Assembly (NCBI GenBank): GCA_020058085.1 | Contig: JAGVER010000007.1 | Span: forward strand, 71,969 to 135,968 | Origin: Candidatus Omnitrophota bacterium | GTDB lineage: Bacteria > Omnitrophota > Gorgyraeia > Gygaellales > Profunditerraquicolaceae | DNA: 64,000 nucleotides | Reading direction: 5' to 3' | In this document: one piece after another, positions 11,618 through 62,893 of the stretch | Layout: every line of letters starts with the position of its first letter | How positions within the stretch are numbered: position 1 is the stretch's first letter | Made by a program: the position numbers and the translations under genes | The notes under the pieces: model-generated | What the model saw: the letters and a program-made list of their open reading frames with translations, nothing else | Told to the model about the DNA's origin: nothing | Database searches by the model: none

Positions 11618-12805
11618 ATGTTAGATAGAAGAAGGCTAAATGTTGGTAAAGAATTGCAACCATGCTTCTATATCGCCACCTTCGGTTGCCAGATGAATAT
11701 GCGGGATTCGGAGGTGCTCTCTGGGCTTTTGAATCGAGCAGGCTTTACTTTAACCAACAAACCGGAAAAAGCGGATATTATTATTTTTAATACTTGTTCT
11801 GTGCGGCAGCATGCCGAGGATAGGGTTTTTTCGTTGATAGGTGAATATAAAAAAAGGCAAAAAAAGAAGATGCCGGGGACGGTTCCTATTATCGGTCTGA
11901 TTGGCTGTATGGCTAAGAATTATCAGGATAAGATATTTAATAAGGCGCCTGATGTTGATTTTGTAGTTGGCCCAAGTGATATTGCCAAAATTCCGGAGAT
12001 TATCGAAAGATTATTAGCTTCTAAGAAAAAGGAGCCCTCTCTTTTTCAATTAAAAATTTGGGAGACGGACGGTGAGGCGCGGCCGGAAGAAATTTATCAT
12101 ACTGGTTTTTATGAAGATAAAAAACATGCATATCTGGTTATATCTGAAGGTTGTTCTAATTTTTGTTCTTATTGCGTCGTTCCCTATGTGCGTGGTCCCT
12201 TACGCCATCGTCATTATAAGGATATTTTAGCAGAGATAGAAGAGGCTATTGATAAAGGCGTAAGCGAAATTACGCTTTTAGGCCAGAATGTGAATGCATA
12301 TCAATATGAAGGCGTTAATTTTGTCGGGCTTGTTGAGCTCGTTAATTCTGTTAAGGGGTTAAAGGAGTTTGGTTTCATGACCTCGCATCCTAAAGATGCA
12401 TCTTCTGATTTATTTAAAGCGATCTCCGGCCTCGATAAACTTAAGAAATCGCTGCATCTTCCTATCCAATCAGGTTCGGATAGGATACTTAAGCTAATGA
12501 ACCGCGGCTATTCCAAAAGATTCTATTTGGATTTAGTCGATAATTATCGTAAGATTGTAGGGGGCGGTACTCTTACTACTGATATAATTATAGGTTTCCC
12601 CAGTGAAAGTGAAGCTGATTTTAAGGAGACTTACAATTTAGTGAAAGACGTTGGTTTTAATTCCGCCTACATATTTAAGTATTCCTTAAGGCCGCATACT
12701 GAAGCTGTTAAGATGCCGGATGATGTTACGAAGAAAGAAAAAGAGGGAAGGCACGCATTAATACTTGAATTGCAGAGGAGTATATCAGAAAGGAAAAGAT
12801 GCTAA
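11618..12805 (+). CDS. miaB: tRNA methylthiotransferase MiaB-like, lacking a C-terminal TRAM domain
   Basis: CFYIATFGCQMNMRDSE (N-terminal MTTase domain) and SEGCSNFCSYCVVP (radical SAM motif). At 395 aa the protein ends just after the radical SAM core. Confidence 0.8.
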   Translation: MLDRRRLNVGKELQPCFYIATFGCQMNMRDSEVLSGLLNRAGFTLTNKPEKADIIIFNTCSVRQHAEDRVFSLIGEYKKRQKKKMPGTVPIIGLIGCMAKNYQDKIFNKAPDVDFVVGPSDIAKIPEIIERLLASKKKEPSLFQLKIWETDGEARPEEIYHTGFYEDKKHAYLVISEGCSNFCSYCVVPYVRGPLRHRHYKDILAEIEEAIDKGVSEITLLGQNVNAYQYEGVNFVGLVELVNSVKGLKEFGFMTSHPKDASSDLFKAISGLDKLKKSLHLPIQSGSDRILKLMNRGYSKRFYLDLVDNYRKIVGGGTLTTDIIIGFPSESEADFKETYNLVKDVGFNSAYIFKYSLRPHTEAVKMPDDVTKKEKEGRHALILELQRSISERKRC

Positions 12806-13491: not shown

Positions 13492-14414
13492 TGTTAGAAA
13501 AAATAATATTTATAGTTGGGCCTACTGCAATAGGCAAATCTGAAACAGCTGTTTATCTCGCCAAAAGAATTGGCGCCGAGATTATCTCTTCTGATTCTAT
13601 GCAAGTCTATAGGGGCATGGATATAATCACCTCTAAGCCTAAGCCTGCTTTGAGAAAAAAGATAAAGCATTATTTAATCAGCACAGTCCCTTTAAGCAAA
13701 GATTATGACGTTTCCACTTATCGTAAAAACGCGCTTAAGAAGGTAAAAGAAATTATCTCGCGGGGTAAAATCCCTATTTTCGTGGGAGGGACCGGGTTAT
13801 ATATCACTATTTTAGTTGATGGGATATTCGATGAAGATGTTAAGGATAAACTTATACGAAATAAGCTTTATGAGTTAGCTAAGAATAGAGGTAATCTTTA
13901 TTTACATAATCAGTTAAAGAGGGTTGATCCTGAAGCAGCGGTTAAGATCCATCCTAATGATACTAAGAGAATCATTCGTGCCTTGGAAGTTTTTAGAGTT
14001 ACAGGGAAACCAATCTCAATCCTGCAGAAAAAGAGGCGCGGCTTAAGAGATGAATATGATGTTAAAATTTTTTGCCTAAATCTGGCTAGGGATAAGCTTT
14101 ATAAAAAAATAGATCAGCGTGTTGAGATGATGTTTAAAGAGGGATTAATAAAAGAAGTGAAAGGGCTTCTTAAGAAAGAGTTGAGCAGGACAGCGTCTTT
14201 TGCTATCGGGATAAGAGAGGCTAGGGGTTATTTAGGGGGCGATTATGGATTAGAAGAAGCAAAGAATATGATTAAGTTAAATACCCGTCGTTACGCTAAG
14301 AGGCAGTTGACTTGGTTTAGAAAAGACAAGAAGATAAAATGGGTTAATCTTGAAGATAATGAAGCGTCAAGGGAAGTTGCGAAACGTATCTATAAATCTT
14401 TAGTTAAAAAATAA
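13491..14414 (+). CDS. miaA: tRNA dimethylallyltransferase
   Basis: IVGPTAIGKSETA P-loop, DSMQVYRGMDI and VGGTGLY. Confidence 0.9.
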   Translation: MLEKIIFIVGPTAIGKSETAVYLAKRIGAEIISSDSMQVYRGMDIITSKPKPALRKKIKHYLISTVPLSKDYDVSTYRKNALKKVKEIISRGKIPIFVGGTGLYITILVDGIFDEDVKDKLIRNKLYELAKNRGNLYLHNQLKRVDPEAAVKIHPNDTKRIIRALEVFRVTGKPISILQKKRRGLRDEYDVKIFCLNLARDKLYKKIDQRVEMMFKEGLIKEVKGLLKKELSRTASFAIGIREARGYLGGDYGLEEAKNMIKLNTRRYAKRQLTWFRKDKKIKWVNLEDNEASREVAKRIYKSLVKK

Positions 14415-14420
14415 AACATT

Positions 14421-14537
14421 TCCCGCTTCAAATGCTATGCCAAAATTCTCTACGATAATTTTGGCATATTCGGCGGGATAAATTCGCGCATCAACTTACT
14501 CACACTATCTGTTCGTAAGTTAAGCGCTCATTTAATG
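14421..14537 (+). promoter_or_regulatory. structured 5' leader, copy 1 of a repeat shared with infA
   Basis: About 115 nt are alignable to 62563-62677 and end at the start codon (GCTCATTTAATG). Three helices are conserved, with compensatory differences between the two copies. Confidence 0.45.
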
Positions 14538-15794
14538 GAAAGAGCTCTCTTAGTTACTATAGAATTAAAACAGGATAAGGAAGAATTAAATATTGAAGAT
14601 AACGAGTCTGAATTAAGAGAGTTAGTCCTTGCCTGCGGAGTAGAGGCAGTGGATAATGTCAATTGTTTTTGCGATAAGCCAACTCCTAATTTCCTGATTG
14701 GTAAAGGCAAGGTTGAGGAATTAGGAGCGTTGGCGCAAGAATTGGGAGTTGATACAATAATCTTTAGCCAAAATTTATCCGGGACGCAACAGAGAAACCT
14801 TGAAGAAGAGTGGGGCAAAAAAACTGTTGACCGCACCCAGCTTATACTTGATATATTTGCCCGCCGCGCCAAAAGCCCAGAGGGGAAAATGCAGGTAGAG
14901 TTAGCGCAGCTCGAATATCTTATGCCTCGATTAGTCGGCAAGGGGATAATTCTTTCACGCCAAGGTGGAGGGGTTGGCACAAGCGGCCCGGGTGAAAAGA
15001 AACTTGAGATTGACCGCAGAAGAATTAAGGAGAGAATAGGAAAGCTTAAGAATGATTTAAAGGGCGTAGTTGCTCACCGTTCTTTAATGCGCAAGAAGAG
15101 AAAAGATAGGGCTATTCCATTGATTGCTCTTGTGGGGTATACTAGTGCCGGTAAATCTACTCTTTTAAACGCGCTTACTCAAGCCGGGCAGGTAGTTTCC
15201 GAGAATCTTTTTACTACATTAGATCCTTTAGTTAGAAATTTTAAGCTTCCAAACGGAGAAGAGATCGTTCTTTCTGATACTGTAGGTTTTCTGCGTAATC
15301 TGCCGCATAATCTGATAGAAGCATTTAAAGCTACATTGGAAGAAGTAACAAATGCGGATTTGTTGATTCATGTATTAGATGCTGCTTCTGCTAAGGTATA
15401 TGACCGGCATAAGGCTGTAATGGATGTGCTTAAGGAATTGGATGCGGATAATAAGCCGATGATTACCGCGTTAAATAAAATTGATCTTTTACATGACGGA
15501 GTCTGGCTAGAAGCAATATCTAAGGATTTTGTCAATCCTGTCAAAATTTCTGCTAAGTTAAGTAGTAATTTAGATATTTTACTGAACGAAATACAGGCAA
15601 ATTTTCCTGATAGGATGGTAGATTTAGATACGCTTATTCCGCATAAGCGTATGGATTTAGTAGATTTGTTCTATAAGAATGGTAAGGTAGCGAAAATAAA
15701 ATATCTCCAGAAGGGAATAAAGGTCAAAGTTAGTATAGATAAGATATTGTATCAGAAATTATTACACGATAAAGACCTGCCGGAAAGCTGTTAG
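14535..15794 (+). CDS. hflX: GTPase HflX
   Basis: HflX N-domain [25 protein letters not shown]1 [13 protein letters not shown]3 DTVGF, G4 NKID. Confidence 0.9.
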
Positions 15795-35356: not shown

Positions 35357-35429
35357 GCTGGAGTAGCTCAGTTGGCAGAGCACGTCCTTGGTAAGGACGG
35401 GGTCACGAGTTCAATTCTCGTCTCCAGCT
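35357..35429 (+). tRNA. tRNA-Thr (anticodon GGU)
   Basis: Acceptor GCTGGAG/CTCCAGC, D-arm AGCTCAGTTGGCAGAGC, anticodon loop CTTGGTAAG and T-arm GGTTCAATTC-like GAGTTCAATTCTC. Confidence 0.9.
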
Positions 35430-35449: not shown

Positions 35450-35599
35450 ATGCGTGAAACAATTACATTAGAATGTACGGTTTGCAAAAATAGAAATTAC
35501 ACGACAAGCAAGAATAAAAAATTGCATCAAGATAGGCTTGAGTTAAGTAAGTTTTGCAGGTTCTGTCATAAGCATACCCCGCACAAGGAAATTAAGTGA
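35450..35599 (+). CDS. rpmG: 50S ribosomal protein L33
   Basis: Not in the ORF track (49 aa): [49 protein letters not shown], with CxxC...CxxC. Confidence 0.85.
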
Positions 35600-35726
35600 G
35601 GGCATAAGTTATGGAGTCTGCTTGCAGACGACATAACTTATATGCCCGAACTTATCCCGACGAATGTGTAAAAATTTTATTTTAAAATTTTTACACGTTT
35701 ATGAGCCGGGAAAAAATAGAATCATT

Positions 35727-35797
35727 AGGGGCGTCGGTTAATGGCAAACCAACGGTCTCCAAAACCGTGACTGCAGGTTCAAGTCCTGCCGCTCCTG
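35727..35797 (+). tRNA. tRNA-Trp (anticodon CCA)
   Basis: Acceptor AGGGGCG/CGCTCCT (one G-T pair), anticodon stem-loop ACGGTCTCCAAAACCGT and T-arm CAGGTTCAAGTCCTG. It occupies the usual position before secE. Confidence 0.85.
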
Positions 35798-61815: not shown

Positions 61816-62559
61816 ATGATTCCTTTAAAATCTGAAGAAGACCTTAAGAATCTTCAGGTATCAGGTGAGATTTTAGGCAGGACAATGAGAGGTTTAAAGA
61901 AGTTTGTTCTCTCCGGGATTTCGACTGCCGAGATTGATCGTATTGCCGAGGAACTTATAATTAAGGAAGGCGCTAAGCCAGCATTTAAAGGCTATAGAGG
62001 ATTTCCCGCGGCTTTATGCGTTTCTATAAATGAAGAGATTGTACATGGTATACCGGGAAAGAGGGTACTTCGCGAAGGTGATATTGTAGGTCTTGATTTA
62101 GGCGTGAATTATCTTGGTTATTTTTCTGATGCGGCAGTAACTTTGGCCATTGGGGAAATAAGCCCTAAGGTTAATAAGTTAGTTGAAGTTACTCGTCAGG
62201 CTTTGGTTGAAGGTATAAAATTAGCGATTGTAGGGAATAACCTATCGGATATATCGCATCGGATCCAAAGTTTTGTTGAGGGTAAGGGTTTTTCTGTAGT
62301 TAGGCAATTTGTAGGGCATGGTATAGGATTAAGCCTGCATGAAGAACCCGAAATACCTAATTTCGGTAGTCCGCATCAAGGTCCGATATTGAAAAGCGGT
62401 ATGGTTTTAGCTATTGAGCCAATGGTAAATATGGGGAGTTGGGAATCGGAGATATTACCTAATGGCTGGACAGCAGTAACCAAAGATAGGCTTCCTTCAG
62501 CGCATTTTGAGCATACGGTTGCGATAACTGAAGAAGGGCCGAGAATATTGACAAGTTGA
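61816..62559 (+). CDS. map: methionine aminopeptidase type I
   Basis: VHGIPG, DLGVNYLGYFSD, FVGHGIG, EPMV and HFEHTV. Confidence 0.95.
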   Translation: MIPLKSEEDLKNLQVSGEILGRTMRGLKKFVLSGISTAEIDRIAEELIIKEGAKPAFKGYRGFPAALCVSINEEIVHGIPGKRVLREGDIVGLDLGVNYLGYFSDAAVTLAIGEISPKVNKLVEVTRQALVEGIKLAIVGNNLSDISHRIQSFVEGKGFSVVRQFVGHGIGLSLHEEPEIPNFGSPHQGPILKSGMVLAIEPMVNMGSWESEILPNGWTAVTKDRLPSAHFEHTVAITEEGPRILTS

Positions 62560-62562
62560 TTG

Positions 62563-62677
62563 TCCCGTCTCATAATCATGCCAAGATTATACGATAATCT
62601 TGGCATATTCGACGGGATAAATTCGCACAATAACTTACTCACACTGTTGTGTTCGTAAGTTATGTGCTCATTTAATG
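62563..62677 (+). promoter_or_regulatory. structured 5' leader, copy 2 of the repeat shared with hflX
   Basis: It aligns with 14421-14537 over its full length and ends at the infA start codon (GCTCATTTAATG). Three helices are retained through compensatory substitutions. Confidence 0.45.
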
Positions 62678-62893
62678 CCTAAAGAAGAACTCATAGAGAC
62701 GGAAGGAAAGATACTTGAAGCTCTTCCTAATGCTATGTTTAAAGTAGAACTTGAAAACGGGCATATAGTACTTGCGCATGTATCGGGTAAAATGCGTATG
62801 AACTTTATAAGGATTTTACCCGGAGATAAAGTAAAGCTAGAGCTTTCTCCTTATGATTTAAGCAGGGGAAGGATAACTTTTAGGGTAAAATGA
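62675..62893 (+). CDS. infA: translation initiation factor IF-1
   Basis: 72 aa with [24 protein letters not shown] and GRITFR. Confidence 0.96.

Follow-up and report, generated by a model that had tools for sequence, protein, structure and literature searches.

The hflX gene of this Candidatus Omnitrophota bacterium is preceded, in the 64,000-nucleotide stretch of DNA analysed here (the window), by a leader of about 115 nt that recurs in front of infA, which raises the question of whether the two leaders form a regulatory device for these two genes or belong to something more general. A preliminary description had presented them as alike along their full length, ending at the start codon without a Shine-Dalgarno (SD) sequence and folding into three helices with compensatory changes, and had read them as a cis-regulatory RNA, or a structured SD-less initiation element, co-controlling hflX and infA, with a structured mobile repeat as the alternative. 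As a description of the two leaders, coordinates included, this was accurate. The copies, which begin with TCCCGC at 14421 (copy 1) and TCCCGTC at 62563 (copy 2), align end to end with a mean column identity of 86%, and both finish in GCTCATTTA followed immediately by ATG, with no GGAG-like motif between. Degenerate 26-27-nt patterns made from the copies matched the window twice, as compared to 0.00 matches expected from 100 shuffles; the similarity of the two copies is beyond chance.

The predicted RNA folds contain the same helices in both copies and are considerably more stable than dinucleotide shuffles (-37.9 kcal/mol and z = -5.4 for copy 1; -50.8 kcal/mol and z = -8.5 for copy 2). Differences between the copies are paired in all three helices, with C-G replaced by U-A in helix 1, A-U by G-C in helix 2 and G-C by A-U in helix 3. 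The three-helix account was correct for the helices that it named; it had missed a fourth helix, UAAAU/AUUUA, which closes the 3′ domain in the predicted folds and whose last base touches the ATG, as well as the UC/UC internal loops and an antisense copy at 35593-35711 (Table 1).

Table 1. Coordinates of the repeat copies, their parts and neighbouring features in the 64-kb window (CM, covariance model).
Feature	Position	Strand	Description	Evidence
miaA stop codon	14412-14414		upstream of repeat copy 1	
Repeat copy 1	14421-14534	+ (sense)	fills the miaA-hflX spacer	CM, 70.9 bits for 14475-14534
Domain A of copy 1	14421-14478	+		predicted fold; both helices covary in 25 type-I copies
Helix 1, copy 1	14421-14427 with 14472-14478		TCCCGCT with GGCGGGA; encloses helix 2	
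Domain A UC/UC loop, copy 1	14428-14429 with 14470-14471			
Helix 2, copy 1	14437-14447 with 14457-14467		ATGCCAAAATT with AATTTTGGCAT	
Domain B of copy 1	14479-14534	+		predicted fold and family alignment
Domain B base helix, copy 1	14479-14483 with 14530-14534		TAAAT with ATTTA	
Domain B basal UC/UC loop, copy 1	14484-14485 with 14528-14529			
Domain B above basal loop, copy 1	14500-14501 with 14513-14514 (second UC/UC loop)		GCGC/GCGC, AACTTAC/GTAAGTT, second UC/UC loop, tip hairpin	
hflX	14535-15794	+	ATG 14535-14537 adjoins last base of copy 1; without SD	
tRNA gene	35357-35429			Rfam scan
rpmG	35450-35599		TGA stop 35597-35599, overlapped by copy 3	
Repeat copy 3	35593-35711	-	CCTCACTTA subfamily; antisense to local genes	nhmmer and CM, 65.5 bits
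tRNA gene	35727-35797			Rfam scan
Sigma-70-like site TTGACA-17-CATAAT	62548-62576	+	spans map end and helix 1 5′ arm of copy 2; probably a chance match	11/12 match
map stop codon	62557-62559		upstream of repeat copy 2	
Repeat copy 2	62563-62674	+ (sense)	fills the map-infA spacer	CM, 73.9 bits
infA	62675-62893	+	ATG 62675-62677 adjoins copy 2; without SD	

Across the family to which these copies belong, the unit is polar, about 100-130 nt long and made of two hairpins, domains A and B. The domain A hairpin ranges from 26 to 70 nt and is closed by (A)UCCC(G)/(C)GGGA(U); the window copies have the form that contains an inner hairpin (helix 2). In domain B, a long hairpin, the closing pairing is UAAAU/AUUUA or, in a sister subfamily, UAAGU/ACUUA. 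Among 94 aligned copies, 95.3% of the domain B cells are standard pairs and double changes occur in 12 of the 18 pairs, giving a covariation score of 0.313 as compared to 0.111 in shuffled alignments (0 of 500 reached 0.313) and 0.03-0.06 with slid partners. The basal helix covaries between the subfamilies (A-U in 88 copies, G-C in six), helices 1 and 2 of domain A covary among 25 type-I copies, and the 3′-terminal pentamer pairs and covaries with a pentamer at the foot of the hairpin. The core is conserved while the hairpins vary freely, including in a relative with 58% GC. The covariation of both domains across the family upholds the earlier proposal of selection on structure.

Each unit carries up to three 2×2 UC/UC internal loops, each beside a G-C pair, with sites in domain A and at two levels of domain B, basal and central. 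The basal loop occurs without exception among the 94 aligned copies. The opposite strand reads these loops as GA/GA. The antisense strand was computed to be the more stable one in 113 of 121 copies because the UC/UC loops become GA/GA, the stems not being the source; a strand call from fold energies was rejected, and a call from wobble pairs (14 G-U vs. 9 A-C in about 1600 stem cells) was uninformative. The stems are almost purely Watson-Crick, with less than 1% wobble. A palindrome, GACGAGGGATCCCTCG, was observed upstream of domain A at four loci (L031, L032, L056, and L114); its GAGGGA could pair with the UCCCUC 5′ arm, a possible alternative to helix 1.

A CM built from the 94 copies and run over the 64-kb window with filters off found exactly three copies (73.9, 70.9, and 65.5 bits); apart from the reverse strands of these three, the next matches scored 12.7 bits or less. 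The final codons of rpmG and its TGA stop come from the third, minus-strand copy, being the reverse complement of that copy's 3′ end (TTAAGTGAGG); the 5′ end of the copy is separated from a tRNA gene by 15 nt. Gene runs in the window include miaB-miaA-hflX-hrcA-grpE and a ribosomal cluster, secY-adk-map-infA-rpmJ-rpsM, and homologues of HflX assign the organism to Omnitrophota.

Outside the window, a 25-nt pattern matched in three Omnitrophota MAGs, the downstream genes being L27, enolase and a small ORF rich in lysine; an SD follows each of these copies, and a good promoter is present upstream of two of them (L002 and L003). A looser pattern covering the linker and the 3′ tail matched at least 120 metagenome loci, and nhmmer with a 3′-module profile added 67 non-pattern copies within the metagenome loci listed; nhmmer gave 174 matches at E < 0.01 in the 870 kb of loci listed, with densities of up to seven copies per 9.7 kb. 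The nhmmer search also revealed the sister subfamily (...GATAAGTTCGG.C...G.CCTCACTTA). Short arrays are suggested by one locus (L089, approximately positions 1-260 of the reverse strand), where near-identical spacers of about 40 nt flank the unit on both sides (AATGGAA.CCGG..AATGAACCGGA.TATTTCA.ATGAG), a layout that would correspond to unit plus spacer. The main pattern had no match in viral contigs. An IMG/VR contig with 58% GC (L140) carries distant relatives of the motif at 11832-11890 (-) and 13758-13816 (+), scoring about 30 bits (GGGGATAAGTTCGACC...GGGTCTCACTTAA), in which the hairpin is completely different and the core and UC/UC loops are kept; downstream of the first of these (11832-11890) come an SD and a GTG start. 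A scan of the whole window against Rfam 15 at the gathering threshold returned only two tRNAs, the best Rfam 15 match to 14380-14580 at E ≤ 10 reached 17 bits against a threshold of 90, and the literature searched for Omnitrophota repeats or RNA motifs contained nothing relevant. The family thus appears to be undescribed for Omnitrophota in Rfam 15 and in the literature searched.

The genes downstream of the copies are unrelated to one another (L27, ACP, GAPDH, PPDK, GroEL, GroES, L11, S11, and enolase, among others) and cover glycolytic, chaperone, lipid-synthesis, and ribosomal functions; among 74 other downstream genes in the loci listed, none is hflX or infA. Co-control of hflX and infA, as put forward in the preliminary description, did not hold up against this result or against the relatives considered below, none of which has a unit at either gene; both outcomes that the description itself had named as refuting it were observed. 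Two structured, covarying copies directly before two translation-related genes are what a dedicated leader, either a riboswitch or a protein-binding RNA, would look like; the breadth of downstream genes, the antisense copy at the rpmG stop codon and the lack of conservation at hflX and infA nonetheless make such a leader extremely improbable. We are confident instead that the segment is a member of a dispersed repeat family rather than a regulator of hflX and infA, and the two genes share it because both junctions received a copy, nothing more. As a description of the segment, a structured mobile repeat is the better of the two original proposals, given many copies in both orientations (three in the window and at least 120 metagenome loci); placement and orientation are, however, far from random.

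Comparison with relatives locates the arrival of the window copies. The map-infA junction contains no unit in six contigs whose InfA is 100% identical to that of the window: map and infA overlap or lie 1-3 nt apart in four of them (L124, L126, L128, and L129), and in the other two (L125 and L127) the spacer measures 52 nt and holds no more than a small CCCCTCG...CGGGG hairpin. With its resemblance to domain A and the beginning of the linker, domain B being absent, this hairpin (CCCCTCGACTTCGCTCGGGG-TAAAAC) may be what is left of a unit, or a minimal version of one. Three relatives with HflX proteins 89%, 88%, and 85% identical (L130, L134, and L138) have no unit upstream of hflX; in these, the miaA/hflX overlap is 19 nt long, and the hflX ATG is preceded at 5 nt by an AGGAG SD located within miaA. 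Throughout L130-L138, no unit precedes hflX. The CM found no copies in L124, L126, L130, L134, and L138. In L125, it found one copy at the rpsD-rpoA junction, which is empty in L124; copy density differs sharply among close relatives. The empty junctions mark both window sense copies as recent, lineage-specific insertions, and the comparison shows that they entered a 0-3-nt or overlapping map-infA junction and the miaA/hflX overlap, with hflX losing its SD in the course of insertion.

Two further observations concern the surroundings of hflX. A MerR-family gene lies between hflX and hrcA in L130-L133, with none among the listed window ORFs of at least 50 aa. The flank encoding the MiaA C-terminus (14389-14419) resembles the first 38 nt or so of hflX (14535-14572), with TCTTTAGTTA..AAAATAAAACA matching TCTCTTAGTTACTATAGAATTAAAACA; a 30-38-nt duplication of the hflX 5′ end would agree with a unit entering the miaA/hflX overlap and producing a long duplication, and at p = 0.13 taken alone it was not significant.

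Units were also found at the same gene start in 11 gene pairs from different genomes, with variable parts that are mostly no more alike than those of random family members, which points either to long retention with fast hairpin turnover or to repeated insertion at like sites.

The 3′ end of the unit is nearly always flush with an ORF boundary, which for sense units is the SD or AUG and for antisense units is a stop codon, often supplied by the unit itself (TAA/TGA from TAAATGA, as the end of the unit reads on the opposite strand). In the 119 pattern copies of the loci listed that could be used, the start codon adjoins the 3′ end (CATTTATG or CATTTAATG) without an SD in 27, and an SD directly follows CATTTA, with the ATG 10-14 nt further on, in about 42; about 22 pattern copies in the loci listed are antisense to a gene whose stop is the TAA/TGA in TAAATGA. 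The two subfamilies are placed differently: among the copies detected in the loci listed, the ATTTA subfamily is start-flush in 82, opposite-stop-flush in 23 and otherwise placed in 26, while the corresponding numbers for the ACTTA subfamily are three, nine, and two (Fisher p = 4e-4). Between co-directional genes in the loci listed, sense copies outnumber antisense copies by 45 to 16 (p = 3e-4). Start-flush placement is not a mere effect of tiny spacers, since it is found in 18 of 33 copies with at least 100 nt of non-coding DNA upstream in the loci listed. Other abutments include a -35 box and a tRNA 5′ end (L110), and two copies start right after the 3′ end of a tRNA on the opposite strand (L022 and L096). 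Neighbouring units in the loci listed form 14 inverted pairs with 3′ ends outward, one with 3′ ends inward and 11 tandem pairs; in the outward layout, an antisense unit follows the stop of the first gene and a sense unit precedes the start of the second, and some genes are bracketed by a sense unit at the start and an antisense unit at the stop.

Strong promoter-like sites occur 18-50 nt upstream of 10% of copies, as compared to 2.4% of control windows; some units thus lie in 5′ UTRs, and the two sense copies in the window are intercistronic. The sigma-70-like site at the infA copy is more likely a chance match (one such site found vs. 1.4 expected in shuffles), and a transcript starting from it, if it were used, would be without helix 1. 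A promoter reading of the repeat was rejected, since a promoter would not maintain covarying hairpins; hflX has no equivalent of the site. An encoded peptide was rejected as well, the helix 2 ATG opening different frames in copies 1 and 2. An SD upstream of the unit, bridged to the AUG by the fold, was seen in three of about 15 AUG-flush copies checked and is not general. An intrinsic terminator was also rejected, with no terminator-like sites in the two regions and no run of T residues after the hairpins, whichever strand is read.

The family is dispersed, polar, structurally constrained, dynamic among close relatives and flush with ORF boundaries. The reading that we favour, at a probability of roughly 0.6, is that it is a dispersed, polar, two-hairpin Omnitrophota repeat of the REP/REPIN, ERIC or Correia kind, non-autonomous, dynamic and co-transcribed with its neighbours, with RNA-level selection acting on the persistence of its copies. 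Self-folding would let the unit enter coupled or overlapping junctions without destroying expression, and because each unit folds on itself it would be tolerated, and perhaps exploited as an mRNA-boundary hairpin that insulates the ribosome-binding site, protects or defines mRNA ends, or serves as a nuclease processing site. Selection at the RNA level would then set the orientation and exact position in which copies persist: the selected feature of sense copies may be the A/U-rich single-stranded exit to the SD or AUG, and that of antisense copies the stop codons in two frames, with hairpins that protect or define mRNA ends. The UC/UC (or GA/GA) loops are likely recognition points for a protein that moves or processes the unit.

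Several observations sit uneasily with a repeat and resemble a selected RNA motif, i.e., the start-flush placement even in long spacers, the subfamily-specific orientation, the retention at the same genes across genomes (11 gene pairs), and the conserved core with freely varying hairpins, also in the 58%-GC relative. They lead to a reading that overlaps with the favoured one and that we regard as possible rather than likely, in which the unit is a host-functional RNA module and not mainly mobile. Its sense form would be a general 5′-UTR or intercistronic element acting in SD-less ribosome recruitment or positioning, or in cleavage at its 3′ end such that mRNAs begin at the SD or AUG, as in tRNA punctuation or at phage T7 RNase III sites; its antisense form would be a matching 3′-end hairpin right after the stop, and the UC/UC loops would bind a processing or regulatory protein. 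The counts of starts adjoining the 3′ end without an SD and of SDs right after CATTTA agree with such a module, as do the abutted tRNA ends, the promoter-like sites upstream and the many highly expressed housekeeping genes downstream; in addition, hflX is without the AGGAG of its relatives, and the essential infA sits behind a unit. The same facts bear on the SD-less initiation element of the preliminary description, of which the placement part stands, the unit occupying the place of the SD at both genes, and for which a role in initiation is possible. Against a host module, the closest relatives have no unit at either window junction, so the unit cannot be needed for hflX or infA; copy density differs sharply between close relatives, the wobble pairs give no strand signal, and 113 of 121 copies have the more stable fold on the antisense strand.

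A still more specific proposal, which we consider decidedly unlikely, is that Omnitrophota mark gene boundaries with a structured RNA module dedicated to this task, the sense form replacing the SD and the antisense form capping the mRNA after the stop. Under that proposal, the sense form would act by SD-independent initiation at the abutting AUG or by cleavage directly after CAUUUA to give leaderless or short-leader mRNAs, and a protein reading the UC/UC (or GA/GA) loops would do the processing.

Several findings that concern mobility count against the repeat that we favour. Among 4078 ORF fragments in 870 kb, we identified neither a Y1 motif nor a homologue of E. coli RayT (phmmer); this is a weak test, low in sensitivity with about 10 kb sampled per genome. 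A flank-sharing test on 74 copies gave no general signal of target-site duplication (z = 2.1), and the unit ends, (A)TCCC... and ...GCTCATTTA, lack inverted-repeat symmetry. No 4-5-nt target is conserved in the 5′ flank, which varies between copies, and only 11 of 76 copies have GGTA or GTAG at a distance of 2-5 nt before domain A. One copy, in L007 (approximately 2560-2700), has a flanking 12-nt direct repeat (TTATTTTATACA) that overlaps the 3′ end of the unit; this is the only clear long flanking duplication among the 74 copies tested. The terminal inverted repeats and the fixed-length target duplication of a DDE-type MITE (Correia, ERIC and similar) were not found, and an integron attC site was rejected; the RYYYAAC...GTTRRRY core is absent from the alignments, and the flanks are housekeeping genes (infA, rpmG, groEL, and rplK).

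Some of these properties, together with others, would fit an element selfish purely at the DNA level, of the IS200/IS605 (PATE) or REPIN-RAYT type or a relic of an HUH transposon. Its single-stranded DNA hairpins would be transposase binding sites, UAAAU/AUUUA would be a guide/cleavage-site pairing as in IS608, and the orientation bias would be a by-product of replication-strand preference. Subterminal hairpins without terminal inverted repeats or regular target duplication, near-pure Watson-Crick stems with less than 1% wobble, GA/GA tandem mismatches that stabilise the other strand, and covariation of the 3′-terminal pentamer with the hairpin-foot pentamer all agree with this reading, and the inverted doublets resemble REPINs (PMC3337134, PMC3116915). 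The + strand carries 56 of the 58 long ORFs in the window, so that gene orientation and replication strand are inseparable there. A transposase would, however, not be expected to make the ends coincide with starts and stops, nor to distribute the subfamilies according to orientation, and with neither a Y1 transposase in the sampled loci nor a conserved 4-5-nt target at the 5′ flank we judge a purely DNA-level element to be unlikely.

Omnitrophota are an uncultured, widespread phylum with compact genomes, and the family is notable for its abundance, strong covariation, recurrent UC/UC loops and unusually exact placement, which extends to replacing the SD at genes as important as infA and to supplying stops on the other strand. 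If this placement reflects function, it would point to an unrecognised form of translation initiation or of punctuation of polycistronic mRNAs; if the family is selfish, it would be a clean example of a self-folding element that invades overlapping or coupled junctions of a streamlined genome while the genes survive. Gene callers will misplace starts and stops near units, which the CM can mask. The orientation-specific subfamilies, the UC/UC loops and the SD replacement at essential genes are features that deserve follow-up.

Among known systems, the nearest comparison is with the REP/BIME/REPIN elements and their RAYT transposases, described in Enterobacteria and Pseudomonas (PMC2817692, PMC3116915, PMC3337134). 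Like these, the Omnitrophota unit is a high-copy extragenic hairpin element, polar, located in probably transcribed intergenic spacers and found at positions that differ between relatives; it often forms inverted doublets of two sub-types (14 outward vs. one inward in the loci listed). Unlike REPs, which are 20-40 nt long, it measures about 100-130 nt with two hairpins and has no regular GTAG/CGTC tag, and RAYT was not found in the sampled loci; about two-thirds of the units immediately precede an SD or start codon, a location that is rare for REPs.

ERIC elements are known from enterobacteria. Correia repeat-enclosed elements have been described in Neisseria (PMC2649163). With both of these, the unit shares a length of 100-150 nt, probable co-transcription, long predicted mRNA hairpins and the capacity to lie near start codons; Correia and ERIC elements can alter expression through RNase III or mRNA stability. 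They differ in that each consists of one long palindrome, bounded by terminal inverted repeats and a TA target duplication, whereas the ends of the Omnitrophota unit are unrelated and without a regular duplication, and neither recurrent UC/UC loops nor a stop- or start-flush placement has been described for them.

PATEs derived from IS200/IS605 carry subterminal hairpins at both ends and have neither terminal inverted repeats (TIR) nor target-site duplications (TSD), and in IS608 a terminal pentamer pairs with a hairpin-foot pentamer in a guide/cleavage-site mechanism. The Omnitrophota unit likewise has subterminal hairpins without TIR or TSD, and its covarying pairing of the terminal pentamer with the foot may be analogous; it differs in having no conserved target 5′ of its left end, and TnpA/TnpB were not found nearby. 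Structured elements located exactly between cistrons are also known as the intercistronic RNase III sites of phage T7 and as mitochondrial tRNA punctuation. The Omnitrophota unit differs from these in occurring in antisense orientation as well, and the likeness would be one of working only, i.e., hairpins with internal loops from which downstream mRNAs would start near the ribosome-binding site or AUG.
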